From the NCBI GenBank assembly GCA_025980765.1, contig JAICXB010000018.1, forward strand, positions 1,155 through 65,154: 64,000 nt of DNA, given 5' to 3'. The notes beneath the pieces were generated by a model, which did not search any database, was not told the origin of the DNA, and saw nothing but the letters and a program-made list of their open reading frames with translations. Below are positions 3,543 to 61,378 of the stretch, in pieces (position 1 is the stretch's first letter; each line of letters starts with the position of its first letter). The position numbers and the translations under genes were made by a program. The DNA is from Terriglobales bacterium. Lineage in GTDB: Bacteria; Acidobacteriota; Terriglobia; Terriglobales; Acidobacteriaceae.

Positions 3543-4471
3543 ATGAGTGCTCGCCGTGTGACGGTTATGGGAAGCTTCGTCGCCGATCTCGCCTTTCGCA
3601 CTCCTCGCCTGCCTGGCTGGGGAGAGACGGTAATGGGATCGGCATTTCTGTTTGGACCTGGCGGCAAAGGTTCCAATCAGGCAGTGGCGATAGCCCGCCT
3701 CAAGGGCCAGGTGACTCTCATCACGAAGCTTGGTCGCGACACGTTTGGCGAATTGGCGCGCCGCACTTATCACGAAGAGGGAATTGACCCCGAGTTTATC
3801 TTTGACACTAGTGAGCACTCGACCGGCGGGGCTGCAGTGATTGTGGACCAGGTCAGAGGTGAGAACGCGATCGTGGTTGTCCCTGGCGCCGGCTTTCATC
3901 TCACGCCGGAGGAGGTGGATCGCGCGGCTACAGCAATCAAGGAATCCGCAATCTTCATGACGCAACTCGAGCTGCCCATTGCAATTGTGCAGCATGGGCT
4001 GAAGCTGGCGCGGGAGCTGCGAGTACCGACAATCCTTAATCCTGCGCCTGCGCAACATCTGCCAGAAGAATCTATCCACTTTGCGACTACCTCACACCCA
4101 ATGAAGCTGAGGCCGCGGAATTGGCGGGCCTGCACGTCTCCACAGTGAGCGACGCTGAGCGCGCTGCTGATGTGTTGCTCGAGCGCGGCGCCGGCAACGT
4201 GGTAGTCACGCTGGGCGCGCAAGGTGCGCTGGTGAAGAACGCCAGTCTCACCCAGCACGTTGCTGCATTCGACGCCGGCCCAGTGCTCGAGACCACCGGC
4301 GCCGGCGATGCTTTCAATGGCGGATTCGCGCTGGCACTGGCCGAAGGCATGAACATTGTCGAGGCCACCCGCTTCGGCTGTGCCGTTGCGGGAATATCGG
4401 TCACGCGTTTGGGTACAGCGCGTGCCATGCCTCGCCGCGCAGAAGTCGATGCTCTGCTAAAGCGCTGCTGA
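3543..4471 (+). pseudogene. rbsK: ribokinase / PfkB-family sugar kinase with the reading frame broken by a 1-nt shift (or an assembly error)
   Basis: ORF 3543..4148 carries the N-terminal two thirds (GGKGSNQAVA, NPAPA). ORF 4121..4471 in another frame carries the C-terminus (TTGAGDAFNGGFA). The expected DYLTPNEAEAAEL is readable only after a frame change near 4078-4086. Confidence 0.75.
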
Positions 4472-4544
4472 TATTAAATACGGCGACCTGTGCAATACCT
4501 TCTGCTATGATGTGCAACCGCATCTCCCAGAACCCAAATAGGCC

Positions 4545-45074: not shown

Positions 45075-45151
<77 letters not shown>

Positions 45152-47712: not shown

Positions 47713-48779
47713 CCTTGCTTCTCCAGCAGGGAAGCGGCCAGCCGAATCAGACCATGCACGCGCTTGTCGAAGTCGCGAAAACGGCAGTCTGAAGTCTGTC
47801 CGCGATGATAGCGGTAAAAGATTTGCTGCAGGACCACCGCCAGCTTGAAAATTCCCAGCACCTCGTAATAGGCGCTCTGCGATATATCGCGTCCGGTGCG
47901 CGCGGCGTAACGCTCGAGGAAACGACTGCGGTCATACCATCCTGGCCCGGCAGTGAATGCGGGAAGCGCCGCAGCGCGCAGTTCAGAAGCGCTCAACCAA
48001 CACCAGTAGCAAAGCGTGAGGCCAACATCTACCAAGGGATCGCCGATGGCACTCATCTCCCAATCGAGTACCGCTTCAATCTTCTCAGCAGACCCGTTTC
48101 GGAACATCACGTTGTCCAGCTTGTAGTCGTTGTGGACGATGGTGGAAGCTGTGGACTTTGGCATTCGCGTTGTGAGCCACGCAATCACGCGGTCCATCTC
48201 CGGTTCCTCTTCGATTTGCGCCCGGCGCCAGCGCTCGCCCCAGCCGCGCACTTGCCGTTCCAGGAAGCCTTCCGGCTTTCCCAGAGAAATCAAGCTGGTG
48301 GCGACAATGTCGATGGCATGCAGGCGGGCAAGGCAATCGATGAAAGCCTCACTGACGATCTGCGCATGATTTCGAATCGCCTCAATCTCGGGTGGGATTC
48401 GTTCGCGCAAAATGCTTCCACGGCGTCGCTCCATCAGGTAGAAGACCGACCCGATGACGGACACGTCCTCACACAGGTGATACACATCCGGAGCTTCGGG
48501 AAAGTGCGGATGTATGGCTTGCAGCACATGAAATTCGCGCGACATGTCGTGAGCTTTGGGCGCGACCGGACCAAGCGGACCGCGTCGCAGCACAAACTCT
48601 TTGTCGCCGCTTTGCAGCAGGTAGGTAAGATTCGAATGTCCTCCGGGGAACTGCTCGATCGAAATCGGGTGTGTGATGCCCTCAACTTTGCCGCGCAGAT
48701 ACTCGCCCAGAATTGCCGCGTTCAGTTCTTCGCCTTGGCGGACAGCGGCAGTATCGGAATGGGCAGAAGCGGAAATCAC
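47709..48779 (-). CDS. APH-fold phosphotransferase (ACAD10/11 kinase-domain-like)
   Basis: FPGGHSNLTYLL, VLRRGPLGPVAPKAHDMSREF and VHNDYKLDNVMF motifs. The GTG start at 48777-48779 overlaps the upstream stop (GTGA). Confidence 0.8.
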   Translation of the reverse strand: MISASAHSDTAAVRQGEELNAAILGEYLRGKVEGITHPISIEQFPGGHSNLTYLLQSGDKEFVLRRGPLGPVAPKAHDMSREFHVLQAIHPHFPEAPDVYHLCEDVSVIGSVFYLMERRRGSILRERIPPEIEAIRNHAQIVSEAFIDCLARLHAIDIVATSLISLGKPEGFLERQVRGWGERWRRAQIEEEPEMDRVIAWLTTRMPKSTASTIVHNDYKLDNVMFRNGSAEKIEAVLDWEMSAIGDPLVDVGLTLCYWCWLSASELRAAALPAFTAGPGWYDRSRFLERYAARTGRDISQSAYYEVLGIFKLAVVLQQIFYRYHRGQTSDCRFRDFDKRVHGLIRLAASLLEKQG

Positions 48780-49777
48780 GCCAGCTTCACAATCATCTTG
48801 CCGATATTGGCGCCGTGCAGCATGTCCAGAAACGCCTGCGGCGCGTTTTCCAGACCTTCGACTATCGTTTCTCTCATCTTCAGCTTGCCCGAGGACCAAA
48901 GCGGGACGACTTCCTTCTGGAATTCCGGTATGCTGCTCCCCCAATCCCTCACGATGAAGCCTTTCAACGTAAGCCGTTTGGAGACGAAAGCCATCATGTT
49001 GCGAGGCCCGGGCGGCTGCGTCTCCTCGTTGTATCCGGAGATTCCGCCACAGGCGATGATGCGTCCATTCACGTTCATCGCGGACAATGCCGCCTCCAGA
49101 TGTTCGCCGCCGACGTTGTCGAAATACACATCAATTCCGTCCGGCGCCGCTTTCTTCAACTGCGGATATACAGGCCCGTCCTTGTAATTGAAAGCAGCGT
49201 CGAAGCCGAGATCGTCAACAAGCCAATGGATCTTGGCTAGTGACCCGGCACTGCCGATCACGCGGCATCCGCGCAGCTTTGCCAACTGTCCAGCGACGCT
49301 GCCCACCGCCCCGGCCGCGCCGGAGATGAAGACGCGATCGCCTGCCTTTACGTCGACCAGATTCAGGCCGACCCAGGCGCTAAGACCGGGCATGCCGAGA
49401 AGTCCCAGATAAACCGACAGCGGCTGGATCTTTGAGTCCACGCGCTGCAGTGCCCGCGCTTCAGCGACGAAGCAATCACGCCAACCGAGCATGGAAGTAA
49501 CCACGTCCCCGCGCTGTAGCCCGCTGGCGCGCGATTCCATGACTTCTCCCACTGCGCCGGCCTCCATCGCCTTCCCAATTTGAAACGGGGGCACATAGGA
49601 CTTCATGTCGTTCATTCTGCCCCGCATGTAAGGGTCGACAGACATGAAGAGATTGCGGACCAGCACTTGCCCCTCGGCGACCGCAGGAAGCTCGATCTCA
49701 CCCAAGGCGAAGTTCTCCAGCGTGGGCCAGCCCTTGGGGCGAGAGGCCAGCCGGAATTCGCGGCTTTTTGCCATCAT
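48776..49777 (-). CDS. NADP-dependent MDR-family oxidoreductase (PTGR1/CurA/YncB-like alkenal/enone reductase)
   Basis: 333 aa with GAAGAVGSVAGQLAKLRGCRVIGSAGS and a typical N-terminus with the FRL..RP.G.P pattern. Confidence 0.8.
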   Translation of the reverse strand: MMAKSREFRLASRPKGWPTLENFALGEIELPAVAEGQVLVRNLFMSVDPYMRGRMNDMKSYVPPFQIGKAMEAGAVGEVMESRASGLQRGDVVTSMLGWRDCFVAEARALQRVDSKIQPLSVYLGLLGMPGLSAWVGLNLVDVKAGDRVFISGAAGAVGSVAGQLAKLRGCRVIGSAGSLAKIHWLVDDLGFDAAFNYKDGPVYPQLKKAAPDGIDVYFDNVGGEHLEAALSAMNVNGRIIACGGISGYNEETQPPGPRNMMAFVSKRLTLKGFIVRDWGSSIPEFQKEVVPLWSSGKLKMRETIVEGLENAPQAFLDMLHGANIGKMIVKLA

Positions 49778-49787
49778 GTCTGTCCTT

Positions 49788-51914
49788 TCACGCGGCAGTG
49801 GCGCCGGGCTCGCGAATGAAGCTGGCGAAAGTCCTGTTGGATTCAGCCAGCTTTTTCAGCAGCGGCGCGGGCGTCCAAAGCTCGCCGTGCTGCCGCTCAA
49901 ACTCGCAGATACGATCGTAAACGCGGCGCAGTCCGACGGTGTCGGCGTACCACATTGGACCACCCCGGTAAGCGGGGAAGCCGTATCCATTGATGTAGAT
50001 GATGTCGATGTCCACCGCGCGCAATGCGTAGCCCTCTTCCAGGATGCGAGCCCCTTCGTTCACCAGCGCGTAGATGCACCGCTCCACAATCTCCTGCGAT
50101 GGAATCTCGCGGTGAGGAATCCCCGCTTCCGCCGACCACCTGCGCACCAAGTCAGCGACTGCCGGATCCGGAATAGGACGGCGGTTCTCGTCGTACTTGT
50201 ACCAGCCGGCGCCGGTCTTCTGTCCGTAGCGTCCGAGCTCGCAAAGGCGATCGGCGGCGAAGGCCTGTCGCACGTCCGGCTTCTCCAGATGGCGATATTC
50301 CTTGCGAATGCGCCAGCCGACATCGAGGCCCGCGAGATCGCCTGTGGCCAGCGGTCCCATGGCCATCCCGAAATCGTAAAGCGCCTTGTCGACAGCTTCT
50401 ACACTGGCTCCTTCTTCCACCAGGAATGTCGCTTCACGAATGTAAGGATGGAACATGCGGTTGCCGACGAAGCCGCGACAGTTGCCGACCAGCACTCCGA
50501 CTTTTCCCAACTTCTTGGCCAACTGCATGCAGGTGGCAACCACTTCTTTGCTGCTGGCGCGCCCGCGCACAATTTCCAGCAGCCGCATCACGTTGGCCGG
50601 GCTGAAGAAATGGGTCCCAATTACGGACTCAGGACGCGAAGTAGAGGCGGCGATTTCGTCAACATTCAAGGTGGAGGTATTGCTGGCGAGAATTGCGCCC
50701 GGCTTGCACATTCGATCGAGTTCGGCAAAGACTTGCTTCTTCAGCGCCATCCCTTCGAAGACGGCTTCGATGACCATGTCAATCTGCGAGAACCCGTCAT
50801 AACTGAGCGTTGGCGTGATCAGCTGCATGCGCTCATCTGCAAACTGCTGAGTGAAGCGGCCGCGCTTCACCGAGTTTGCATAGTTCTTCTGGATCGTCGC
50901 GAGACCGCGATCAAGCGCCGCCTGCTCGGTCTCTTTGACCAAAACGGGAATGCCGGCATTGGCGAAAACCATGGCGATGCCGCTGCCCATCGTTCCAGCT
51001 CCCACCACCGCGGCGGTATTCACCGGGAGGGTTGGTGTTTCCTTAGGAATGTCCGGAACTCTGGCGACTTCGCGCTCGCCGAAGAAGACATGGATCAGCG
51101 CCTTGGACTGGTCGGAAAAAAGGCACTCGTTGAAAAGCCTTCGTTCCAAAGCAATGCCTTCGTCGAACGGCAGCTGGGTGGCAGCTTCAACGGCATCGAT
51201 CGCGGCCAGAGGAGCGATCAGGTTGCGCTGCTTTTTGCGAGCGGTCTCGCGCGCAGCGGCGAAGATCGCGGCATTCTGCGATGCGTCTCCAAGCTTCTCA
51301 GTTCTCTCTCGCGTTTTGGGAATGGATTTACCTGCGACCTCACGCGCGAAGGTGATCGCTTCCGCCACCAGATCTCCTCGAACCATTCCATCAAGAATGC
51401 CCAGCCTCGCCGCGTCTTCAGCTTTCACCGGATTGCCTTCGGCGCACATCTCCACTGCTTTGGCGACACCCGCCAGCCGCGGCAAACGTTGCGTGCCGCC
51501 GGCGCCAGGGATCAGACCGAGCTTGACCTCCGGTTGCCCGACCTGCGCGCCTGGATCGGCCAGCCGGTAATGACCAGCCATTGCCAGCTCCAATCCGCCG
51601 CCAAACGCAGTTCCGTGAATGGCCATGATCACGGGCTTGCGACAGTTCTCGACGCGATCAATTAAATCGAGCAATGCTCTTCCGCGTGACTGGCCAGAAA
51701 CAATCTTGCCGAATTCACGAATGTCAGCGCCGGCGATGAACGTCTTTCCCGCTCCGGTGAGCACGATGGCGTTCACTGTGTCATCGGCTTCGCTTTGCGC
51801 AAATGCCGCGAGCAGCCCTTCGATCACCGCAGGACTCAAGGCGTTTACGGGTGGGTTGTCGATTGTGATGACGGCGATTTCGTTGTGGTTCTGGAGGTGG
51901 ACTGAGTCGTTCAT
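49788..51914 (-). CDS. bifunctional enoyl-CoA hydratase / 3-hydroxyacyl-CoA dehydrogenase (FadB/FadJ-like)
   Basis: Crotonase N-terminus (NPPVNAL, FIAGADI, GGGLELA) and an HCDH Rossmann motif VVGAGTMGSGIA. ATG at 51912-51914 preferred. Confidence 0.9.
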   Translation of the reverse strand: MNDSVHLQNHNEIAVITIDNPPVNALSPAVIEGLLAAFAQSEADDTVNAIVLTGAGKTFIAGADIREFGKIVSGQSRGRALLDLIDRVENCRKPVIMAIHGTAFGGGLELAMAGHYRLADPGAQVGQPEVKLGLIPGAGGTQRLPRLAGVAKAVEMCAEGNPVKAEDAARLGILDGMVRGDLVAEAITFAREVAGKSIPKTRERTEKLGDASQNAAIFAAARETARKKQRNLIAPLAAIDAVEAATQLPFDEGIALERRLFNECLFSDQSKALIHVFFGEREVARVPDIPKETPTLPVNTAAVVGAGTMGSGIAMVFANAGIPVLVKETEQAALDRGLATIQKNYANSVKRGRFTQQFADERMQLITPTLSYDGFSQIDMVIEAVFEGMALKKQVFAELDRMCKPGAILASNTSTLNVDEIAASTSRPESVIGTHFFSPANVMRLLEIVRGRASSKEVVATCMQLAKKLGKVGVLVGNCRGFVGNRMFHPYIREATFLVEEGASVEAVDKALYDFGMAMGPLATGDLAGLDVGWRIRKEYRHLEKPDVRQAFAADRLCELGRYGQKTGAGWYKYDENRRPIPDPAVADLVRRWSAEAGIPHREIPSQEIVERCIYALVNEGARILEEGYALRAVDIDIIYINGYGFPAYRGGPMWYADTVGLRRVYDRICEFERQHGELWTPAPLLKKLAESNRTFASFIREPGATAA

Positions 51915-51952
51915 ACAGGTTCTCTCTAGATGAAGGGTGGAATCCAAAGAAT

Positions 51953-52415
51953 GTCATCCTGAGCGAGGGCGAACGCCCGAGTCGAAGGACCCCAACGCTG
52001 CTGATGCCCGATCCTGCCGCAGGAATTCTCCCGATGCGGCAATCTGTTTGTCCATGTGCGAATACAGATCCTCCCATCGCGGATTCTGCCGCTCAATCAG
52101 CGCGACTTTTTTCGATCTTCTCCAGCCCTTCAACTGTTTTTCCCGGCTGATCGCCCGGAATACGCTGTCAAACTCCTCTCGATAGACCAAACGCGTGCAC
52201 GAGTATTTTTTTGAAAAGCCCTCGAAGGCACCAGTTTTGTGCTCCCATACTCGCAGCTCCAGATCGCTGGTCACACGGATGTACAACGTGCCGCTCAGAC
52301 TCGACATGATGTATGCCCAGTATTGGTGTTCCATTCTCGAGATCAATCAGTAACTACCACTCTGCGAGAGTGCCGGGGTCCTTCGACCCGGGCGTTCGCC
52401 CTCGCTCAGGATGAC
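51953..52415. mobile_element. 463-bp element: a GIY-YIG gene bounded by 41-bp inverted repeats (40/41 match)
   Basis: Left IR 51953-51993 is gtcatcctgagcgagggcgaacgcccgagtcgaaggacccc. Right IR 52375-52415 is its reverse complement with one mismatch. The element sits between the ligase stop and the fadB-like start. Confidence 0.7.
51954..52334 (-). CDS. GIY-YIG nuclease family protein (UPF0213/YhbQ-like)
   Basis: YWAYIMSSLSGTLYIRVTSDLELRVWEHK (GIY...YIG equivalent), KQLKGWRRSKK and LIERQNPRWEDL. The C-terminal tail reads into the left IR. Confidence 0.75.
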   Translation of the reverse strand: MEHQYWAYIMSSLSGTLYIRVTSDLELRVWEHKTGAFEGFSKKYSCTRLVYREEFDSVFRAISREKQLKGWRRSKKVALIERQNPRWEDLYSHMDKQIAASGEFLRQDRASAALGSFDSGVRPRSG

Positions 52416-54001
52416 AACGGCATTAGTGTGCCCTGCCCCCAGTACTGTTTGCGCAAATCTTTCTTGAGTATCTTGCCGGTTCCCGTTTTAGGAAGCGATG
52501 CCAGGAATTCAACCGATCGCGGGCATTTGTAATGGGCGATGCGTCCTCGGCAAAATTCCAACAGTTGCTCCTCGGAAGCGCTTGCTCCCGGCCTCAACAC
52601 CACCAGCGCTTTCGGAACCTCACCCCATTTGGTGTCTGGCACCGGGACCACTGCCGTCTCATACACTGCGGGGTGCGCGGACAAGGCCTTCTCGATTTCA
52701 AGCGATGATATGTTTTCGCCGCCGCTGATGATGATGTCCTTCTTGCGGTCGACGACCAGAATATAGCCGTCCTCGTCCATGGTGGCCATGTCGCCGGTGT
52801 GAAACCAGCCGCCGCGCATCGCTTGCGCGGTGGCCGCGGGCTGCTTCCAGTATCCCTGCATCACACCGTCGCCGCGAGCCACTACTTCGCCGATGGACGC
52901 GCCGTCGTGGGGCACGTCACGCTCTTCGGCATCGACTACCCGCAGTTCCACTCCGGGAATCGCGTATCCGGTCATCGCCTGTCCATTCCAGCGTTGCTCG
53001 CCCTGCCACTCCGCTCCCGGCTTGCTCAATGAGACGGAGAGCACCGGAGAGGTTTCCGTCAGCCCGTACCCGGAATAGCAGGTGCATCCCAGTTTCTCCT
53101 CGATCTCCTTCACCAGCGCGGGAGACGATGCCGAGCCGCCGATGCTGATGCGGTCCAGGCTGCTCAGGTCATATTTCGGGCGTTCCGGGGAGTTCACGAT
53201 TGCGACTGCCATGGTGGGAACAATCCCAAAATGGGTGACCCGCTCCTGCTGGATGAGGCGGAAGATCTCGCTGCAATCCCAGAGCCGCAGAATCACGTGT
53301 TTGCCGCCGAGCATCGTGACCGTATGCGCAGCGCCCCAGCCATTCGCATGGAAAAGAGGGATGGTGTGCAGGATGACGTGCTCGATTCGAGGATCGGAGA
53401 CCATGGAGCTACTCAGCGCATGCAAATAAATGTTGCGATGGCTCAGCATCACGCCTTTCGGTTCGGCGCTGGTTCCGCTGGTATAGAAGAGTTCCGCGAG
53501 CGAGTCTTCATCGATCTGCATGATGTCGGCCTGATGCGGCTTGGCCGCAGACAGCAACTGGTCGTAGTGGTGAGGAGTCATCCAATCCGCCTGGGGAAGG
53601 GAATCGAGCGAGACGAATCGTTCGACGGAAGGAACGCTGCGACGAAACTGTTCGACAAAGGGAAGAAATTCCTTCTCGAAAAAAAGGATGCGCGCTTCGG
53701 AATCATTCAGGATGAAAGCGAGCTCCTGCGCAGCCAGGCGAAAATTCAAGGGCAGCAGCACCGCTCCCGCTTCGAGAACTCCAAAATAAGCTTCGAGCAA
53801 GCGATGGCAGTTCTTGCTGAGAAAGGCAACGCGATCTCCGGGCCCGATCCCGAGCTGCAGCAGCGCGCCGCCGAGGCGTGCGGCACGGTCCGCGAACTGC
53901 GCGTAGGTGAACCGTTCGCTGCCGCAGACGATTGCGGTGCGTTGTGGAAACTGCTGCTCAGCGTAGCGGAGGCAGCGCAGTGGGGTGAGAGGAATATTCA
54001 T
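52406..54001 (-). CDS. AMP-dependent acyl-CoA ligase (fatty-acid--CoA ligase)
   Basis: 531 aa with YTSGTSAEPKGV, the GYGLTET AMP-binding motifs and a C-terminal TGKILK. Confidence 0.9.
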   Translation of the reverse strand: MNIPLTPLRCLRYAEQQFPQRTAIVCGSERFTYAQFADRAARLGGALLQLGIGPGDRVAFLSKNCHRLLEAYFGVLEAGAVLLPLNFRLAAQELAFILNDSEARILFFEKEFLPFVEQFRRSVPSVERFVSLDSLPQADWMTPHHYDQLLSAAKPHQADIMQIDEDSLAELFYTSGTSAEPKGVMLSHRNIYLHALSSSMVSDPRIEHVILHTIPLFHANGWGAAHTVTMLGGKHVILRLWDCSEIFRLIQQERVTHFGIVPTMAVAIVNSPERPKYDLSSLDRISIGGSASSPALVKEIEEKLGCTCYSGYGLTETSPVLSVSLSKPGAEWQGEQRWNGQAMTGYAIPGVELRVVDAEERDVPHDGASIGEVVARGDGVMQGYWKQPAATAQAMRGGWFHTGDMATMDEDGYILVVDRKKDIIISGGENISSLEIEKALSAHPAVYETAVVPVPDTKWGEVPKALVVLRPGASASEEQLLEFCRGRIAHYKCPRSVEFLASLPKTGTGKILKKDLRKQYWGQGTLMPLSS

Positions 54002-54014
54002 TTAAGTGCGCCGG

Positions 54015-54119
54015 GGTTAACACGGAGGTCACAAAGGCAAAACCTCAAGGTCACGGAGAAAACATAATTACAAATCTCCGTGACCTTGAGGGGTTCACCT
54101 CGTGTCCTTCGTGCTAACC
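54015..54119. repeat. GGTTAACACGGAGG...CCTTCGTGCTAACC inverted-repeat element (about 44-nt arms)
   Basis: Left arm 54015-54058 and right arm 54076-54119. The inner part caaggtcacggag / ctccgtgaccttg is perfect. It overlaps the hydrolase stop. Confidence 0.75.
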
Positions 54120-55513
54120 AAATGGTGATCCACCGCATCGAACTCCCGCAAATACTGCGCGGGTTTGAAGTTGATGAAAGCCGGAGCAGTGGGAACGATT
54201 CCCTGCGAGGTAGCGAAGATGTTGAAGTTCGGCCCGAGTGCCGAGGCTGCAGCGTTCAGGTCGTCGGCATCCAGATCGTGCGGCCATTTGCCGGTGACCA
54301 GCCGAGTCAGCAAGGTTTCTACTGCCGCGATGGTCTCTGCCGGAGTGAAAGCGCAATGGCCGGCGCGAGCCACGTAGGTTTGCCGCAGGAACCGGGCATT
54401 GCCGCCTTCGTCGACCACGTCTTTGTATGCCGATTCGTTTTCGACCACAACCAGACCGTCTCCCTTGGTGTGCAGAGTGAGAACCGGAATATGGATCTGC
54501 CCATTGAAGATCAGGTTGTGCTCGAGATATTCGCGCGCATCTTCGTCGGCCTGGATACGCGGCGCATCTTCCAGCGCATCGAGATCGGCATCGAGATCGA
54601 GGTTCGCGGCCTCGTACAGCGCTCGAACTTCTTCGCGATCCACCGAGTGCTCCAGCTGTTTCCGATAATTGACGCCGGTATTCGATGAGGCATTGCCGCC
54701 GGCGCGCGCTTCCAACTCAGCGCGAAAAGCGAAGATGAACGGGAAATCAACTTGCTGGTCCCAGAGAAACTGGTTGGCCTCTTGCGAAGCGAAATCGTTC
54801 GCGGCGGGCTCGGGAGATGTCGGAATAAACCATCCCGGGACATCGCTCAGGGCGGCTACAAGCGCGAGGCGCGCGCGTCCTTGCGGTGTGGCCTGCGCCT
54901 GGGAAAGCAGAAACTCCGAAAGCTGGAAATTCGCCGTCGGATTGGCGATGTTGACCACCTGCAACGGTGTGTTTGCACCCAGCAAGGTCTTGAAGGCGAA
55001 CTCTCCGTCCAGCGCCGTGTTCCACGTGGCAACGCCGCCGGAGAGAACTCCGCACATGGGAAGAGCCGCATCAAAGCGTTCCGGGAAGCGCTGCATCAGG
55101 CCGGCAGTAATGATGCCACCGAGCGAGTGTCCCCAGGCGATCGTGGCCAGCGGATGTCCGACCAGCGTATTGAACTGATCGAGCACTGCGATCTGGTCCG
55201 GCAGCGCTTCTTGAATGGCCCATCCAGTGTGGGCGTACGAGGATCCTGCCAGCGCAAATCCGCTTGACAGCATAAACAGACGCGTAGCCGAATCGCCGAC
55301 ATCGACAGCAGGGTTCGGGCTGCCCGGTGTCACGTAGCCATGACTGTACAGAAACAGCGCCCCGTTCCAGTTTGCCGGAACTTCAATCAGGAAGGTCGCG
55401 CCGTCGGCAAGCGTACCGGTGTGAGTAGTGATCTGCGCGACGGCCGTGGAGATGGACAACAGCAGCAGAGCGATAATCCCAATAAGGGAATGGGCTTTGG
55501 CGATTCTATGCAT
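54095..55513 (-). CDS. secreted alpha/beta hydrolase (lipase/esterase-like)
   Basis: ATG at 55511-55513. Signal peptide MHRIAKAHSLIGIIALLLLSISTAVAQ and nucleophile elbow GHSLGG. Confidence 0.75.
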   Translation of the reverse strand: MHRIAKAHSLIGIIALLLLSISTAVAQITTHTGTLADGATFLIEVPANWNGALFLYSHGYVTPGSPNPAVDVGDSATRLFMLSSGFALAGSSYAHTGWAIQEALPDQIAVLDQFNTLVGHPLATIAWGHSLGGIITAGLMQRFPERFDAALPMCGVLSGGVATWNTALDGEFAFKTLLGANTPLQVVNIANPTANFQLSEFLLSQAQATPQGRARLALVAALSDVPGWFIPTSPEPAANDFASQEANQFLWDQQVDFPFIFAFRAELEARAGGNASSNTGVNYRKQLEHSVDREEVRALYEAANLDLDADLDALEDAPRIQADEDAREYLEHNLIFNGQIHIPVLTLHTKGDGLVVVENESAYKDVVDEGGNARFLRQTYVARAGHCAFTPAETIAAVETLLTRLVTGKWPHDLDADDLNAAASALGPNFNIFATSQGIVPTAPAFINFKPAQYLREFDAVDHHLVSTKDTR

Positions 55514-55549
55514 ACCTTTCTCCTCATGTGGAGCCCGAAAAAGCTTGTT

Positions 55550-55731
55550 CACCACGGAGGCACGGAGAGCACGGAGAAACGATTGTGTTGTGGAAGTTGT
55601 CATCCCGAAGTCCGCCGGGCCGGACGGAGGGATCTGCTGTTCGGTCCAAGAAGCAGATCCTTCGCTTCGCCTCGGGATGACAATTGGAACATCCTAAAGT
55701 TGTGCTCCGTGTCCTCCGTGCCTCCGTGGTG
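55550..55731. repeat. composite element: (CACGGAG)n / (CTCCGTG)n inverted arms enclosing a GTCATCCCGA...TCGGGATGAC hairpin
   Basis: Outer arms are 55550-55580 and 55702-55731. The inner hairpin is 55599-55681, with a sub-stem ggatctgct/agcagatcc. Confidence 0.8.
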
Positions 55732-55741
55732 AAATCGAACT

Positions 55742-58700
55742 TCAGAAACTGAACCTTATGCCCAACTGGATCTCGCGTTTCTGAAACGCTGATGTGAAGC
55801 CCAGAGGCTGGCTGGGCGACAGCCGGTTGGTTCCTTGCACGTTGAAGGTGGTAAATCCCGGCTGGAAGCCGAATGCCGGCCCGACTTCGTTGTTCACCGT
55901 GCCGTAGTTCGTGCGGTTGGTGATGTTGAATCCCTCCGCGATCAACTGCACGTTGCTGCCTTCGGTGATTTTGAAGGCGCGCGTCAGGCGCAGATCGAAC
56001 GTGGTGTAGTCAGGTCCCATACCGCTGTTGCGCGGAGCGCCGATGGCGCGATCGTTGGTCGAGTGGCGATCGCCGTTCACATCGGTTCCGCCTGCCAGCA
56101 GATTGAACGGGTGACCACTGTTGTAGCGAATGATGGGCGAGAGCTGGAAGCCGGTGAGGAAGCGATTTTCCGACGGACTGGCCAGCACCGCCGCGACCAC
56201 CACTTTGTGCCTCTGGTCGAAATCCGACAACGCACGCTCCTGCGCGAGATTGGTATTGTCCACCGGACCAAAGTCGCTGTTGAAATCTGTCGAAGTGTCG
56301 AAAGCCTTGCTGTAGGTGTAGTTGCCCATCAGCGTAAAGTGATCGCTGAAGCGCTTCTTGACTTCGATAATGCCGCCCTCGTACAGCGCGGACGCTTTCG
56401 AACTGTATTGGTCGGACTGGAGAATCAACGGGTTTACAAAGCAGCCGAGAATCGCCGCTCCCTGGCAGGGAGCGATACCCAGCGGGTCTTGCAGCGGGCT
56501 GGAATTCCAGTCACGATACGTGACTGTCTGTCCATTCGCCAACCTCGTGGTCACAAATGGGGCAGGCAGGGCATTGGTGTCGATCGCAACCGGCAGCCGC
56601 AGAGTGTGCGAATAGATGAAATTGAGAGAAACGGAAAATCCGGGAGAAATCTCGTTTTCAATTCCAAACGATGCCTGTTCCGAATAGGGATTTTGGTAAT
56701 TGGGTTGACCGCTGAAGAGCACAGTCAACGGCGGCAGCGGACCGGTATTGGCCACGCTGATGCCAAAGGGCGCCAGGTTCGCCGGGGTGATGCAAGCCGC
56801 GTTGCCGGCCGCCGGCGTGGTGCACTGGATCAGTCCCTGGGCGAATAGCGTTTGATAGATTGCGGCCGAGCTGACCGCCGGGTTCAGCGGATCACCGGTA
56901 AGCGGGACCAGCAGGTTCGCGATCTGGCGATTGCCGTTGACGTTGCCCAGCGTCTGCACCACATCGGCAATCTGACCGTACACCTGCGAGTAGAAGATGC
57001 CGAAGCCGCCGCGAATCACCGTCTTGTGGTTGCTAAAGGGATCGTAGGCGAAGGAGAAGCGCGGAGCAATATTGTCCGGATCGCTCGACAGCGCACCATA
57101 TTGGGAATCAAATTCGTAGCGCAAGCCATAATTCAGGGTCAGCTTGGGATTCACCTGCCATTGGTCCTGCGCGTATGCGGCGCTGAACGAGCGCGGATAG
57201 TTGTAGACCGGATTGCCGAAGCCCTGCTCGTAGAACTGCGGCAGTCCCAGCGATGCCGATTGCAGGGCGTTGATGGTGGCAGGGCTGGTGGTTGCCGAAA
57301 GTCCGCAGGCCGCGGGTACCTGCAGGCAGGGACTGACCAGCCCGCCGGGCAGGGAACCGAAGACAAAGCGTCCGGGAAAGAAGGTGTGCGACTCGGTGTG
57401 ATTGCCGCGCACCAGTTGCTCGCCTCCGAACTTGAGGGTGTGCTGCCCGTGGATCAGGGTGAAGTTGTCACTGACCTCGGGACGCCGCATGATGGTCAGG
57501 CTGGGCAGGAAGATGTTGGTTCCCAAATTGGCAAAGCCGGGAATGTCCAGCCCGGGTTCGGCGGGAACGTTGGGGATGACGTTGAAGTCGGTGTAGTTGT
57601 ACTGCCCGCGCAATTCATTCTGCGCCGAGACACCGAACTGGTGGAACCAACCGGCGGCCAGCGTGTGGTAGTACGAGTGAATGGAACTGCCGCGGGAGAA
57701 GCCAACCAGCGATTGCACGTCCGGAGACTCTTCCAAGTCGTGTGCGAAGTTATAGCGGAGCGTCACCAGGTTGGCGTCATTGAAGTGCTGGTCCAGCCGA
57801 ATCGAGGTCAGGTATTCGCGGGTGTCGAAGGGGAACAGTCCACCATTGCTTTCGAGTTGATTCACGAGGAACGGGTCGGAAGCCCTCTTGAAGAGGTTCA
57901 CAAAGGGATTCGCGCCGGGGTTTGGATTCACCGTCAAAATGCTCTGCAGGGCGAACGCGCAGGTTGCTGCCGGCAAATTAATGAAAGTTCCCGCAGGCGC
58001 CGGAGCAGGTGCAGCAAGGCAGGGAACCGTCGCCGCGCCCAGTCCGGCCAATCCTCCGAGAATGGCCGCTTGGTTGTTCTGCGGATCGGCTTCCGGCCGG
58101 AAGATGGCCGTGTTGGTCAGCAGCGGCACAGCGTTCTGCGCATCCTGACGCAGGCCTTCAAAGGCGCCGAACACAAATGTCTTGTCTTTCTTGATAGGAA
58201 AGCCAATGGTCCCGCCGTACTGCTGTCGGCTCAAGGAGTCCTTCACCGGCTGGCCGACGGAATCGGGAGCCAACGGATTGAAGGTTTGTCCTGGCGCCAA
58301 TGCCTGGCTGAAGGAAAACGGATTGCGGGCGTCCAGCGCGTCATTGCGGAAAAACCCGTACAAGCCGCCATGCACCTGGTTGCCGCCGCTCTTGGAGACG
58401 ATGTTGATCGAAGCTCCGCTGGCGCCACCAAGCTCCGCGGAATAGTTGCTGCGATTGACCTGAAATTCCTGCACCGCATCCTGGCTGAGCGTCAATCGAA
58501 CGCCGCCGGAATCGTCGTTAGCTTCGCCGCCATCCACGGTTACGCTGTTGCCGCGTCCATTGCTGCCGTAGAACGACAATCCGCTCTGCGGCGTCTGCTT
58601 CACGCGGAAATCCTGATCGTCGGCTAGCCGAGTGGAATCGGTGACGCCCGGCAGCAGCAGCGTGAAAGTCAGGTAGTCGCGACGGTCAATCGGCAAATCG

Positions 58701-59137
58701 GTGATGTAACGTTGCTCAATCGTGTCCGCCTGCTTGCCCTGGGTGGTGTCGATCACCGGCGCTTCGGCGGTGACGATCACCTCCGTCGAGGCCTGCGCCA
58801 CCTTGAGCTGAAAGTCGGAGGTGGTAGTTTGGCCGACGCTGACGATCACGCCCTTGCGCACTTCAGTCCCAAATCCGGAAACCTGGGCGGAGACATCATA
58901 GGTCGCGGGCGGCAAGTTGGGGACGCGGAATTGACCGGTGGCGTCCGTGGTGGCGGTGCGCTTTAGCCCGGTTTGCGCGTCCAACGCGCTCACGCTCACA
59001 TTCGGCAGCACCGCGCCGGAAGGATCGGTGATCGTCCCGCGAATGTCGCCCGACGCGCCCACACCCTGCGCGAAGGCCAGGGTGGCGCTCAAGAAGATCC
59101 AGAAAAAGGTTGATATCAGCTTCTGTCCGTAATTCAT
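55742..59137 (-). CDS. TonB-dependent receptor with an N-terminal CarboxypepD_reg-like domain
   Basis: 1131 aa. Signal peptide, then GTITDPSGAVLPNVSVSA...TGQFRVPNLPPATY, a plug, a long beta-barrel and a terminal aromatic (..IRFSF). Confidence 0.9.
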   Translation of the reverse strand: MNYGQKLISTFFWIFLSATLAFAQGVGASGDIRGTITDPSGAVLPNVSVSALDAQTGLKRTATTDATGQFRVPNLPPATYDVSAQVSGFGTEVRKGVIVSVGQTTTSDFQLKVAQASTEVIVTAEAPVIDTTQGKQADTIEQRYITDLPIDRRDYLTFTLLLPGVTDSTRLADDQDFRVKQTPQSGLSFYGSNGRGNSVTVDGGEANDDSGGVRLTLSQDAVQEFQVNRSNYSAELGGASGASINIVSKSGGNQVHGGLYGFFRNDALDARNPFSFSQALAPGQTFNPLAPDSVGQPVKDSLSRQQYGGTIGFPIKKDKTFVFGAFEGLRQDAQNAVPLLTNTAIFRPEADPQNNQAAILGGLAGLGAATVPCLAAPAPAPAGTFINLPAATCAFALQSILTVNPNPGANPFVNLFKRASDPFLVNQLESNGGLFPFDTREYLTSIRLDQHFNDANLVTLRYNFAHDLEESPDVQSLVGFSRGSSIHSYYHTLAAGWFHQFGVSAQNELRGQYNYTDFNVIPNVPAEPGLDIPGFANLGTNIFLPSLTIMRRPEVSDNFTLIHGQHTLKFGGEQLVRGNHTESHTFFPGRFVFGSLPGGLVSPCLQVPAACGLSATTSPATINALQSASLGLPQFYEQGFGNPVYNYPRSFSAAYAQDQWQVNPKLTLNYGLRYEFDSQYGALSSDPDNIAPRFSFAYDPFSNHKTVIRGGFGIFYSQVYGQIADVVQTLGNVNGNRQIANLLVPLTGDPLNPAVSSAAIYQTLFAQGLIQCTTPAAGNAACITPANLAPFGISVANTGPLPPLTVLFSGQPNYQNPYSEQASFGIENEISPGFSVSLNFIYSHTLRLPVAIDTNALPAPFVTTRLANGQTVTYRDWNSSPLQDPLGIAPCQGAAILGCFVNPLILQSDQYSSKASALYEGGIIEVKKRFSDHFTLMGNYTYSKAFDTSTDFNSDFGPVDNTNLAQERALSDFDQRHKVVVAAVLASPSENRFLTGFQLSPIIRYNSGHPFNLLAGGTDVNGDRHSTNDRAIGAPRNSGMGPDYTTFDLRLTRAFKITEGSNVQLIAEGFNITNRTNYGTVNNEVGPAFGFQPGFTTFNVQGTNRLSPSQPLGFTSAFQKREIQLGIRFSF

Positions 59138-59207
59138 AAAGACTCCCTATGCAGCCAGAATTGATAAAGCCCGGCCTTAAGGCCGGCATTCAATCGTTAC
59201 GCAAAAA

Positions 59208-59405
59208 CTGTCATCCTGACGAGTGACTATGTCCGCATCGCGGACGTAGTCGCGAGGAGGAAGGATCTCGGCGAAATGCTTCGGTTGCATTTTGTAGTGG
59301 GAACTCTTCGACCACGGATTCTGGTTGAGGAGCCTTGCACACACCAATTTCATCCGAAATATCCCAGGAGATCCTTCGCCCGCTGCGCGGGCTTCAGGAT
59401 GACAG
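59208..59405. mobile_element. 198-bp non-autonomous derivative of the GIY-YIG element
   Basis: Perfect 12-bp termini ctgtcatcctga / tcaggatgacag and an inner ggaaggatctc / gagatccttc pair. The interior encodes LLNQNPWSKSSHYKMQ on the minus strand, resembling LIERQNPRWEDLYSHMDKQ of the full copy. Confidence 0.6.
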
Positions 59406-59458
59406 CTCAAAGAACTTAGACTCTCGCCCACCTCGGCAATCCCCCCGTCTTGCGTCCT

Positions 59459-60184
59459 TCACGACGTCATTGACAACACCCGCGGCATCTTCCTGCGCGC
59501 GACCGGTGCCTTGCCATTGCTCCTCGATTTCAAAGAACGCGTTTCGTGCGAACTCCACAATCCGCCGGAAAGCAGTTGAATGAACTTGTCCATCGCCTGC
59601 TCGTCGGAGACGCCAAGATGACGATTGCCCTGCAGCAATTTCTCGATCAGGAAATAGGTGATGACGTGCAGATAAATCGTCGCAAACGCGAATGCCGGGT
59701 CCTGTCCGCACCAACCCGGTTGGCGCTTGGCCTTGCTCAGCACCGGCCCGAGGCGGCTGCGAAACTGTTCCGGCATGTTGTGGAACCACTCGGCAAAATG
59801 CTGGTTCTTGAACTCGATGGCATCGATATACATCAGCAGCCAGAATTCGGCGTGGTTATACACATATCCGCGAATTTCGCTGGTGAACTTCTTCAGATCG
59901 CTTTTGGAGAAGATGTCCTCCAGGCTGCTGAACATCTGGTCGCGCAACTGCTCCATATGCGCCTTGTAGTTGCGCACCAGCGTCACATAGAGCGCCTCTT
60001 TCGTCGGATAGTAGGTGTAAATCGCCCCTACCGAGACCTCGGCATGCTCCGCGATTTCGCGGATGTTGGTCCCGTGAAATCCCTGTTTCGTAAACAGTTC
60101 CAGCGCCGCCGTCTCGATGCGGCGCTGGTTCTCCAGAATGCGGTTTTGGGCAATCTTGGGCACGGAAAATGAATGTTTGTTCAA
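59459..60184 (-). CDS. TetR/AcrR family transcriptional regulator
   Basis: N-terminal HTH AALELFTKQGFHGTNIREIAEHAEVSVGAIYTYYPTKEALY. Confidence 0.9.
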   Translation of the reverse strand: MNKHSFSVPKIAQNRILENQRRIETAALELFTKQGFHGTNIREIAEHAEVSVGAIYTYYPTKEALYVTLVRNYKAHMEQLRDQMFSSLEDIFSKSDLKKFTSEIRGYVYNHAEFWLLMYIDAIEFKNQHFAEWFHNMPEQFRSRLGPVLSKAKRQPGWCGQDPAFAFATIYLHVITYFLIEKLLQGNRHLGVSDEQAMDKFIQLLSGGLWSSHETRSLKSRSNGKAPVARRKMPRVLSMTS

Positions 60185-60287
60185 AAAACGAGCGTTCGCC
60201 TTTTATTACAGTAGTATTCCCAAGTCAAGGAGTTTTTATGCACAGCGCGAGCTGAGGTGGGAGGAAGAAGCAAAAGCAACTGCCTTA

Positions 60288-60454
60288 CCACGGATTGCAC
60301 GGATGTCACGGATTCAGCGGATAAAGCCTGGGAGAGTGACAAATCATTTCCGGGCGTCGAAACAAAAGTCTCTTCCGCGACATTCAATCGGAAACGAAGA
60401 ATCACACCCGATAAAAATTCATCCGTGCGATCCGTGACATCCGTGTAATCCGTG
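60288..60454. repeat. (CACGGAT)4 ... (ATCCGTG)4 inverted heptamer-repeat element in the TetR/SDR divergent promoter region
   Basis: The left arm 60288-60322 is ccacggattgcacggatgtcacggattcagcggat. The right arm 60421-60454 is atccgtgcgatccgtgacatccgtgtaatccgtg. Confidence 0.8.
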
Positions 60455-60485
60455 ATAGAGCTTTTGCGTTTGATTTTGGAGGCAC

Positions 60486-61274
60486 ATGCAAATACGAGAC
60501 AAAGTGGTTGTAGTCACGGGCGGTGGGAACGGCATCGGACGTGCCTTGTGCCGGCGCTTTGCGGCTGAAGGCGCGCGTGCCGTTGTGGTCGCCGATCGTA
60601 AGAGCGCAGACGCGGAAGCAGTTGCGAAAGAGATCTCCGGAATTGCCCTTCCCACCGACGTTGCCGAGGAAGCCGCGGTCAAACAGCTGGTCCAGCGGGT
60701 CATCCAGCAGCATGGAGCCATTGATCTCTTCTGCTCGAACGCCGGTTTGGGTGTTGCCGGAGGCTCCGAAGCCTCGGATTCTGACTGGCAGAGAAGTTGG
60801 GAAGTGAACGTGATGGCGCACGTCTACGCCGCGCGTGCGGTGCTGCCGGCGATGCTGGCTCGCGGCGAAGGATATCTGCTGCAGACGGTCTCGGCAGCCG
60901 GACTGCTCACGCAAATCGGCTCAGCTCCCTACTCGGTCACAAAACATGCCGCGCTGGGATTCGCGGAATGGATCGCGATTACCCATGGCGATCAGGGCAT
61001 CAAAGTGTCTGCGCTATGTCCGATGGGAGTTCGCACCAACATGCTCTTTGAGGCGCAATTCGCCGGCGGCGCATTTCTGCTGGAAACTGCAGTGGAACCC
61101 GAGCGGGTAGCAGACGATGTGATCAAAGGCCTGGCGGAAGAACGCTTCCTGATTCTGCCGCATTCCGAAGTCGCAGAGTTCTTCCGTCGCAAAGCCAACG
61201 ACTATGATCGCTGGATTAAAGGTATGCGTAAGCTGCAGGCCAGCACGCAAGTGTTGCAGCCGAGCGGGAGATAG
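60486..61274 (+). CDS. SDR family oxidoreductase
   Basis: [12 protein letters not shown] Rossmann motif and YSVTKHA catalytic YxxxK. Confidence 0.85.
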
Positions 61275-61378
61275 CCGCTCCCGGCCCCTGCTGCCGGGGC
61301 AATTTCGACCTGTGTTGTTCCTGGTCCGCGCTCGTCGGATGCTAGACACGAGGAATACTTGAAGAAGCTGGTCGGCGT

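Follow-up and report, generated by a model that had tools for sequence, protein, structure and literature searches.

What kind of element is a lone GIY-YIG nuclease gene that stands between two inverted repeats in a row of beta-oxidation-type genes? The question is raised by a 64,000-nt stretch of a Terriglobales bacterium (GenBank assembly GCA_025980765.1, contig JAICXB010000018.1, positions 1,155 to 65,154 of the forward strand), hereafter the window, in which a 465-bp unit of this design lies between a long-chain acyl-CoA ligase gene and a FadB/FadJ-like gene. We propose that the unit is very probably a member of the Ssn system, that is, an ssn nuclease gene placed between two inverted copies of a hairpin recognized by the nuclease family. 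A preliminary description, made from the letters of this DNA, had found no known element type to match the unit. That view does not stand, as this architecture has been in the literature since 2025 (PMC11893778) and the window protein is clearly homologous to SsnA; the category is a known one, and what is described here is an Acidobacteriota member with a variant hairpin. The unit consists of the following parts.

51952..52416, minus strand: whole hairpin-ssn-hairpin unit, 465 bp, bounded by 42-nt inverted arms
52375..52416, minus strand: gene-proximal (5') hairpin repeat; the minus strand is TGTCATCCTGAGCGAGGGCGAACGCCCGGGTCGAAGGACCCC and includes the TGA that now closes the ligase reading frame
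52335..52374, minus strand: 40-nt leader from the hairpin to the nuclease ATG, read off the sequence; semi-conserved in the subfamily copies L001, L109 and L143 (L numbers denote comparison loci)
51954..52334, minus strand: ssn-type single-domain GIY-YIG nuclease gene, 126 residues (Pfam PF01541, SsnA homology)
51994..52031, plus strand: 'module 2', semi-conserved after the hairpin in most copies; here AACGCTGCTGATGCCCGATCCTGCCGCAGGAATTCTCC, elsewhere gagaatg...gcaaggcattctc
51952..51993, plus strand: gene-distal (3') hairpin repeat; the plus strand is TGTCATCCTGAGCGAGGGCGAACGCCCGAGTCGAAGGACCCC and its terminal bases form the TGA of the nuclease reading frame

A repeat search showed that the arms, 51952-51993 and 52375-52416, form a 42-nt inverted repeat that is complementary at 41 of 42 positions (98%) across a spacer of 381 nt. 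The 41-bp terminal inverted repeats of the preliminary description (51953-51993/52375-52415, 40/41) are therefore real and one base longer at each end. Its account of the genes was also borne out: the nuclease open reading frame, running from 52334 to 51954, is the sole gene between the arms, the ligase stop at 52406 lies inside the right arm, and the fadB-like gene starts at 51914. The nuclease frame continues through the left arm to the TGA within the terminal TGTCATCCTGA, where it ends, and the ligase stop is the equivalent TGA of the right arm. The unit has the orientation of the gene row and is probably transcribed together with it; no further GIY-YIG gene was found within the window. Within the window, the 14-nt arm terminus GTCATCCTGAGCGA is restricted to the two ends of the unit, and TGTCATCC occurs eight times against 2.06 expected, six of the eight being ends of three hairpin elements. 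The two elements besides the unit are the gene-less relatives noticed earlier, now placed at 59209-59404 (196 bp) and 55598-55682 (85 bp), which have the common termini TGTCATCCYGA...GAAGGATCT / AGATCCTTC...TCRGGATGACA. The excess of TGTCATCC, together with the recurrence of the arm in 83 metagenome stretches, indicates that the arms and their gene-less relatives are not a product of chance. The earlier statement that all other junctions of the gene row are tight was incorrect; the ligase gene lies 93 nt from its upstream gene, and another inverted repeat is found there (54015-54119).

The 126-residue protein gave a single Pfam match, to GIY-YIG (PF01541, E 2.9e-9, residues 5-76). The GIY-YIG domain covers about residues 1-92, and residues ~100-126 are a read-through of module 2 and the hairpin. 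BLASTP against the 94-residue SsnA ortholog of Neisseria gonorrhoeae gave 47% identity over 86 residues (E 6e-25); the published criterion for homology is E < 1e-10 to N. meningitidis SsnA, and the N. gonorrhoeae ortholog was used here instead. A tblastn search of the window protein against a plasmid collection reached E 3e-15. As shown by the alignment, Y8, Y18 and E65 of the window protein correspond to Y6, Y17 and E64 of SsnA and are invariant in the family alignment. The assignment to the Ssn system follows from this identity, from the three aligned residues and from the hairpin-gene-hairpin architecture. An AlphaFold2 model (pLDDT, the predicted local distance difference test, 88.4) contained one GIY-YIG domain, a C-terminal helix and a disordered, repeat-encoded tail, with residues ~100-126 modeled at low confidence. 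The top structural matches of the model were 1zg2, Slx1 and UvrC-N. The nearest solved structures are the UPF0213 proteins 1zg2 and 1ywl, in keeping with the earlier label 'UPF0213-like', which is only approximate in that the functional family is Ssn. No model in NCBIfam, PHROGs or PADLOC matched the protein. Its relatives are numerous, with more than 1,287 in a 90%-clustered collection and 11,818 at E <= 0.001 among 50%-identity representatives; most have 106-112 residues and the common motif REKQLKGWRRSKKIALIE..NPRWEDL.

The Ssn system with its NTS/SRM hairpins was described by Chenal et al. (2025, Nat Commun 16:2388; PMC11893778), and its architecture is NTS/SRM-ssnA-NTS/SRM. SsnA of N. meningitidis is a 94-residue single-domain GIY-YIG protein that binds the NTS hairpin CGTCATTCCCGCGMAVGCGGGAATCYRG (PMC11893778). 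It is a site-specific nuclease of single-stranded DNA (ssDNA), which acts in one orientation only and cuts a few nucleotides 5' of the (C/T)GTCA-headed hairpin; double-stranded DNA (dsDNA) is not cut and RNA is not bound (PMC11893778). Each of the Y6A, Y17A and E64A substitutions abolishes cutting, and the most important bases are the C after the palindrome for binding and the three before it for cutting (PMC11893778). SsnA homologs constitute the Ssn family, CDD cd10448, in which one or more related motifs accompany 71% of homolog loci and 42% are flanked by a motif on both sides (PMC11893778). Chenal et al. regarded NTS-ssnA-NTS as insertion-sequence-like and similar to REP/RAYT (REP, repetitive extragenic palindromic sequence), with movement hypothesized only, and the role proposed for SsnA in Neisseria lies in transformation, through restriction of incoming ssDNA (PMC11893778). 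Acidobacteriota are not mentioned in the main text of that paper (PMC11893778). We found homologs with 40-56% identity in plasmid and chromosome records, each flanked by (C/T)GTC-headed hairpins, as listed below.

Planktothrix homolog: flanking hairpin TTGTCATTCTGAGTGAAACGAAGAATCTC
Sinorhizobium homolog: flanking hairpin CCGTCATCCTCGGGCTTGACCCGAGGATCCA
Novosphingobium homolog: perfect 31-nt arms starting CGTC
Neisseria gonorrhoeae homolog: flanking hairpin CCGTCATTCCCGCGCAGGCGGGAATC (dRS3, the canonical NTS)

The Planktothrix homolog gene is located between a gene for an MmeI-type restriction enzyme and the DISARM gene drmA.

Next, the structure of the hairpin was analyzed. Alignment of the three window elements showed a conserved head, TGTCATCCYGA, a variable middle that forms a small stem-loop by itself, and a tail, GAAGGAyC, which is conserved as well; the hairpin of the unit reads TGTCATCCTGA...GAAGGACCCC. 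In the Terriglobales lineage, the form is TGTCA-TCCT-GA, a variable stem-loop, and GA-AGGA-yC, so that its parts are a yTGTCA head, a TCCT/AGGA stem, a tandem GA/GA, an inner stem-loop and a conserved C, with module 2 beyond. Covariation of the outer stem was scored with 458 heads of the form TGTCATxyzGA in ~1.06 Mb of fetched loci, and the tails matched the heads as follows.

Head xyz CCC: matching tail 34/40
Head xyz TCT: matching tail 22/29
Head xyz GCT: matching tail 27/27
Head xyz CTT: matching tail 20/21
Head xyz TCC: matching tail 11/15
Head xyz GTT: matching tail 5/5

In 250 distinct hairpins, 715 of the 750 stem cells were Watson-Crick pairs, and in 88% the inner region folded more stably than when it was shuffled. 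Wobble pairs were divided 8 versus 10 between the strands of these 250 hairpins, which is no strand bias; the count is uninformative on RNA versus DNA, and the absence of bias is compatible with a structure at the DNA level. The 222 hairpins of the loci selected through the protein gave the consensus yTGTCATCCTGAGCG...AGtCGAAGGAcCcC, in which the C two bases past AGGA is 98% conserved. This C matches the base on which SsnA binding is reported to depend most. Judged by their sequence, the head, the first stem bases and the trailing C of the window hairpins correspond to the functional map of NTS. The 85-bp pair at 55598-55682 folds as one long branched hairpin (z -4.2). A ribozyme, which the CUGA...GA core had brought to mind, found no match in Rfam, and scans at the gathering threshold and at E <= 10 gave no RNA family (ribozymes included) at any hairpin. 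Likewise, no hairpin had a following T-run or a terminator-like score in the intrinsic-terminator check.

The linkage of gene and hairpin was then analyzed in loci chosen through the protein alone, namely the best 80 of more than 587 loci with one genome scanned per species, almost all of them from Terriglobales or other Acidobacteriota metagenome-assembled genomes (MAGs). The best protein match to the window nuclease in this genome collection was 76%. A hairpin lay no farther than ~260 nt from the gene in 74 of the 80 loci and on both sides in 45; the hairpin density was 2.4 per kb beside the gene and ~0.05 per kb beyond 2 kb, a difference of ~50-fold. Two layouts were observed. In the first, which is that of the window, a hairpin, the gene and an inverted hairpin follow one another. 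In the second, 10-25 nt separate the ATG from a preceding complete inverted pair of ~220 bp, and a second pair often stands directly past the stop; a gene between two complete pairs is the commonest architecture in Terriglobales. Pairs of the type found at 59209-59404, with lengths of about 215-260 bp, abut ssn genes in L007-L040. The 196-bp element had first been read as an internally deleted gene copy from an NP-W-like stretch. This was rejected because its interior matches the ~220-bp gene-less pairs that abut ssn genes and because true derivatives look different; neither the 196-bp nor the 85-bp element is a simple deletion product of the gene-bearing unit. Deletion derivatives that keep both ends were found elsewhere. 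L098 (8090-8428) lost ~50 internal codons and has a premature stop, L150 retains only the first codons of the gene, and L109 (79-394), of the window's own subfamily, lost the 3' half of the gene.

A pattern scan of metagenome contigs found the window arm in 83 stretches with 0-2 mismatches, in soil metagenomes from many projects. A GIY-YIG homolog was present in only ~11 of 80 arm-bearing metagenome loci, the remainder being solo arms, inverted pairs 100-450 nt apart and direct tandems. Because most arm copies are without a gene, REP-like hairpin repeats describe the arms better than transposon ends do. As observed in 98 oriented copies aligned by eye, the 5' boundary is razor-sharp at TGTCAT. 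A pyrimidine precedes the head in 85% of copies. On the other side, GGACCCC is followed by the semi-conserved module 2, which stands directly before the nuclease ATG in L098, L138, L150 and L160. Gene-less pairs also form tandem arrays, with three 214-bp pairs repeated every ~343 bp in L009 (4325-5224) and four 134-bp pairs repeated every 161 bp in L042 (2168-2784); these arrays are reminiscent of the BIME clusters of REPs. Diverged ssn genes, each with its own hairpins, occur in tandem within 1-2 kb in L038 (3268-4991), L058 (4001-4651) and L074 (3327-4309). A further ssn subfamily is located upstream of a dnaJ-like gene (KDYYGVLGV...) in the Acidobacteriaceae MAG loci L007, L010, L011, L012, L013 and L018 (~4300-4500) and has mostly the CTT/AAG hairpin variant, which points to an ssn copy that has long been inherited vertically. 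Protein clade and hairpin variant showed only a partial pattern, which is confounded by descent.

Furthermore, the junctions of the unit were compared with those of relatives. The neighboring genes and the gene-less elements of the window are as follows.

52406..54001, minus strand: long-chain acyl-CoA ligase gene (NF004837, E 6e-175), with its 3' end replaced by the unit
49788..51914, minus strand: FadB/FadJ-like gene, starting 37 nt beyond the unit; collinear with L089 11677-13803
55598..55682, no strand assigned: gene-less inverted hairpin pair, 85 bp, ATCCC/GGGAT variant; nested between CACGGAG-type inverted repeats 55548-55576 / 55705-55733
59209..59404, no strand assigned: gene-less inverted hairpin pair, 196 bp; its interior is of a type seen beside ssn genes in many Terriglobales loci

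The closest ligase ortholog (95% amino acid identity) is found on L089, a 16.9-kb contig that is collinear with window positions 48114-61279 at 88-94% DNA identity. At the orthologous ligase-fadB junction of L083 and L089 the unit is absent; the gap in L089 is 59 nt and contains no nuclease gene. Every ligase ortholog ends in ...T(I/L)RPE(L/F) and a few more residues, whereas the window ligase ends in ...GTLMPLSS (the end reading ...YWGQGTLMPLSS before the stop). The RPE(L/F) tail of all orthologs indicates that the filled state is derived and that the ligase lost ~13 codons. Thus, the unit replaced the last ~13 ligase codons and supplied a new stop from its own terminus. At the empty site of L083 (6587-6676, compared with window 52417-52433), we also observed CCTGAGC, the ligase Pro-Glu-Leu codons, exactly where the unit end is TGTCATCCTGAGC, and GGATCAC where the other unit end is GGATGACA; this likeness may be due to chance or may point to a target similar to the termini of the element itself.

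The second, independent junction lies between genes for an FtsX permease and an RND-type adaptor, where 589 nt with the unit (L001) compare with 7 nt (L179) and 148 nt (L177) in orthologs of 83-84% protein identity. The two unit-free orthologous junctions support a gain or loss of the unit, in the first case between genomes with about 89% DNA identity. The other hairpin elements of the window differ from L089 as well. L089 is without the 196-bp element, its gap between the TetR and receptor genes being 60 nt compared with 321 nt in the window, and it is without the further repeat of window 60313-60448. At the junction of the 85-bp pair, L089 (8345-8425) has a different pair, TTATTCCGAAGCGCAGCGAGGAATCCC...GATTCCTCGCTGCGCTCAGAATGAA, with a compensated ATTCC/GGAAT stem, indicating that this intergenic gap was occupied independently in the window and in L089. 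As far as the searchable literature shows, such comparative evidence for gain or loss is new; the empty sites, the deletion derivatives and the rapid turnover are the first comparative evidence for movement that we found in the literature searched. The preliminary description had proposed a search for empty sites and had reckoned with the same insert in all relatives, with diverged inverted repeats, as one outcome; in fact, the L089 and L179 junctions are empty. The other outcome that it had named, terminators unlinked to GIY-YIG genes, was not observed either, as the hairpins are not terminator-like and are linked to the gene in 74 of 80 loci.

A second repeat family was seen in the same region. 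Its short heptamers, of the CACGGAG / CACGGAT type, are repeated in tandem and form inverted repeats at 55548-55576/55705-55733, 54015-54119 and 60268-60475, and one such pair brackets the 85-bp hairpin pair. The repeat at 60313-60448, which L089 is without, belongs to this family. Heptamer repeats flank the L001 unit also, and analogous heptamers stand beside hairpins in metagenome loci, namely GATTGAC (L111, L139, L144), GTTTCAG (L141, L164) and GTACCGA (L155, L163). The only Rfam match in the window at the gathering threshold is a tRNA gene on the minus strand, at 45078-45151.

Units of 465-468 bp are present in other gene contexts (L001 3445-3909 and L003 3916-4384). A protein 93% identical to that of the window is encoded between the FtsX permease and the RND-type adaptor and a 76%-identical one between an AAA ATPase and rpsL, with the same arms around both. 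The insertion contexts (ligase/fadB, FtsX/adaptor and AAA ATPase/rpsL) are therefore unrelated. Compared with the L001 copy, the nuclease domain showed 0.033 nonsynonymous (dN) and 0.71 synonymous (dS) substitutions per site; dN/dS was 0.046, indicating that the gene is under purifying selection. Compared with L003, synonymous sites were saturated, while the arms still differed at no more than 2 of 84 nt. Such arms are constant far beyond the neutral expectation, owing either to direct constraint (recognition by the protein) or to homogenization (concerted evolution). The dS values, from 0.71 to saturation, indicate that the copies in different contexts are no recent duplicates of one another.

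Several results weigh against the Ssn reading. First, the window protein has R20 (TLYIRVT) in place of the Gly of the YIG motif (TLYIG) that all ~120 inspected relatives have; codon 20 (about 52275-52277) is CGT in the window and GGT in the L001 copy. Given Arg20, the window copy may be catalytically impaired or starting to decay. Second, the published SRM pattern, HGTCWYN(0-2)YYVSBRHN(0-5)WNVSBRGN(0-2)RNCYNB, does not fit any of the six window hairpins. They are missed because their stem is interrupted by GA/GA and the inner stem-loop. The pattern, built by hand from 29 genomes (PMC11893778), fits the Neisseria and Sinorhizobium repeats and misses all Acidobacteriota hairpins as well as those of the Planktothrix agardhii and Novosphingobium aromaticivorans homologs (L173 1233-1942 and L176 1436-1856), so its failure counts against its reach more than against membership in the Ssn system. 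Third, the predicted fold of a single 42-nt arm as ssDNA is no more stable than that of its shuffles (z 0.24 and 0.09), so the outer stem is supported by covariation and not by energy. Fourth, the filled and empty sites are not related by a clean insertion: ~54 nt of ancestral sequence were replaced and the intergenic DNA has diverged, so gain is inseparable from gain plus deletion and the exact joints are uncertain. Finally, the search for target-site duplications, which the preliminary description had also proposed, found none in 91 inverted pairs, with no match of 4 nt or more and with 1-2-nt matches below chance. Its interpretation is upheld in part. The unit is discrete, stands in unrelated contexts, is absent from orthologous junctions and has derivatives; the phrase 'self-mobilising or homing-type' is unproven, there are no target-site duplications and the junction is unclean.

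Comparison with known systems placed the unit nearest to Ssn/NTS. Common to both are a single-domain GIY-YIG protein of about 94-126 residues with the catalytic Tyr, Tyr and Glu kept, around the gene, inverted hairpins in which a (C/T)GTCA head leads into a stem that begins with TYCC and is followed by a conserved C, and hundreds of gene-less intergenic copies. In contrast, the hairpin here is 40-90 nt long with an outer stem of 4-5 bp and a tandem GA, compared with a 28-nt Neisseria repeat with a continuous 7-8 bp stem; the module 2 after the hairpin, the reading frame that runs through the repeat, the Arg for the YIG Gly and the phylum, Acidobacteriota, are further differences. With REP/REPIN-RAYT systems (TnpA-REP; REPtron), it has in common short structured palindromes whose unpaired 5' tetranucleotide is conserved, arrangements as inverted pairs and in tandem clusters, a small nuclease gene between its own repeats, many gene-less copies per gene, and some vertically inherited genes. 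It differs from them in its GIY-YIG rather than HUH/Y1 transposase domain, in its TGTC/CGTC rather than GTAG head and in having several diverged genes per genome. The CGTC-tagged REPs, including dRS3, likewise have an unpaired GTC-containing head, a hairpin, a short tail and predominantly head-to-head dimers, but the head here is TGTC, the stem is interrupted, and no Acidobacteriota family is listed in PMC3733652. Di Nocera et al. (2013, PMC3733652) placed the dRS3 of Neisseria among the CGTC-tagged REPs and reported that this superfamily has no dedicated enzyme; dRS3, which is CGTC-1, also forms the core of NTS.

The likeness to IS200/IS605 consists of subterminal hairpins recognized in ssDNA and the absence of target-site duplications. 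However, the ends of IS200/IS605 are no inverted repeats, both of its cuts are on one strand and it joins DNA through a tyrosine intermediate. We know of no such joining chemistry for GIY-YIG enzymes. With I-TevI-type homing endonucleases only the GIY-YIG fold is common, whereas the window protein has neither a DNA-binding domain nor a conserved target gene or intron. Miniature inverted-repeat transposable elements (MITEs) are also bounded by inverted repeats and have short non-autonomous derivatives, but the terminal repeats here are themselves hairpins. By the criteria used for insertion sequences, the unit is bounded by inverted repeats at unrelated sites and has empty sites in relatives; a recognized transposase class (DDE, HUH/Y1, or serine/tyrosine recombinase) was not found in it, the only domain being GIY-YIG.

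The unit could be an autonomous, selfish REPtron-like transposon, which transposed recently here and for which a host function is secondary; its nuclease would excise or copy hairpin-bounded segments through ssDNA and in this way move the gene-less pairs as well as its own gene. We consider this possible, at somewhat less than even odds. Such an element would account for presence and absence at two orthologous junctions, for three hairpin elements within 8 kb that all differ from L089, for MITE-like internally deleted derivatives with both ends kept, for multi-copy and tandem genes within genomes (L038, L058 and L074), and for a razor-sharp 5' boundary, yTGTCAT, near the position of the SsnA cut. 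The absence of target-site duplications in the 91 pairs argues against it, and we know of no strand-transfer activity for a lone GIY-YIG domain. Furthermore, SsnA cuts one hairpin orientation, so an inverted pair would receive one cut per strand, unlike what IS200/IS605 needs; copies in different contexts are old; some are syntenic across genera upstream of the dnaJ-like gene, as in vertical inheritance; and neither an excision nor an insertion event was observed. The IS-like architecture, which favors a transposon, was remarked by the Ssn authors themselves (PMC11893778).

Homing-type spread, in which the gene moves among pre-existing hairpin pairs by break repair with the 40-90-nt arms as homology, appears unlikely; the dispersed pairs themselves would then have been moved by something else. 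It is favored by gene-less pairs that have the arms and module 2 of the gene-bearing unit, by arms that stay nearly identical while the gene diverges, as under recombinational homogenization, and by one architecture in which the gene lies exactly between module 2 and its inverted partner. However, the commonest Terriglobales architecture has the gene between two complete pairs and not inside one, the ligase-fadB junction of the relative has no hairpin pair as a landing pad, the protein has no separate DNA-binding domain as in I-TevI-type enzymes, and SsnA is inactive on dsDNA (PMC11893778). That the hairpins are ordinary terminators or mRNA-stabilizing structures of the host, around the GIY-YIG gene only incidentally, is very improbable: they do occupy intergenic gaps between co-oriented genes, as REPs do, and such roles of REPs were discussed by Di Nocera et al. 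(PMC3733652), but the ~50-fold density beside ssn genes in loci selected through the protein contradicts an incidental position, T-runs and terminator-like scores are absent, the wobble counts of the two strands point to nothing specific to RNA, unpaired head and tail bases are conserved, and SsnA does not bind RNA (PMC11893778).

As a member of the Ssn system, the window protein would bind the TGTCA-headed hairpin only as ssDNA and in one orientation, by analogy with N. meningitidis SsnA. The nick in that strand would fall within a few nucleotides of the (C/T)GTCA head, on its 5' side, where homology between copies ends, and this cleavage of ssDNA at hairpins might spread or maintain the repeats together with the gene. 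The hairpins behave as REP/REPIN repeats, most of them solo or in gene-less inverted pairs and a minority bracketing a nuclease gene, and a host role such as the restriction of incoming ssDNA, as in Neisseria, is conceivable. We tentatively suggest, with more doubt than confidence, that the units and gene-less pairs are actively mobile in Acidobacteriota and that the Ssn nuclease is the long-missing enzyme of CGTC/TGTC-headed REPs, forming a REPtron-like replicator.

These results extend the Ssn system to soil Acidobacteriota, where the hairpin differs in structure, being interrupted, and escapes the published motif. Since this motif misses interrupted hairpins, current repeat counts are likely underestimates. 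For enzyme discovery, each gene-hairpin pair also offers a candidate single-strand nuclease together with a recognition site that is new. For the host, the unit altered the 3' end of a metabolic gene, which now takes its stop codon from the unit. The gain or loss between close relatives bears on whether these modules are mobile and on what spreads CGTC-type REPs. If they are mobile, the family would include a replicator in which a GIY-YIG single-strand nuclease takes the place of the Y1 transposase.

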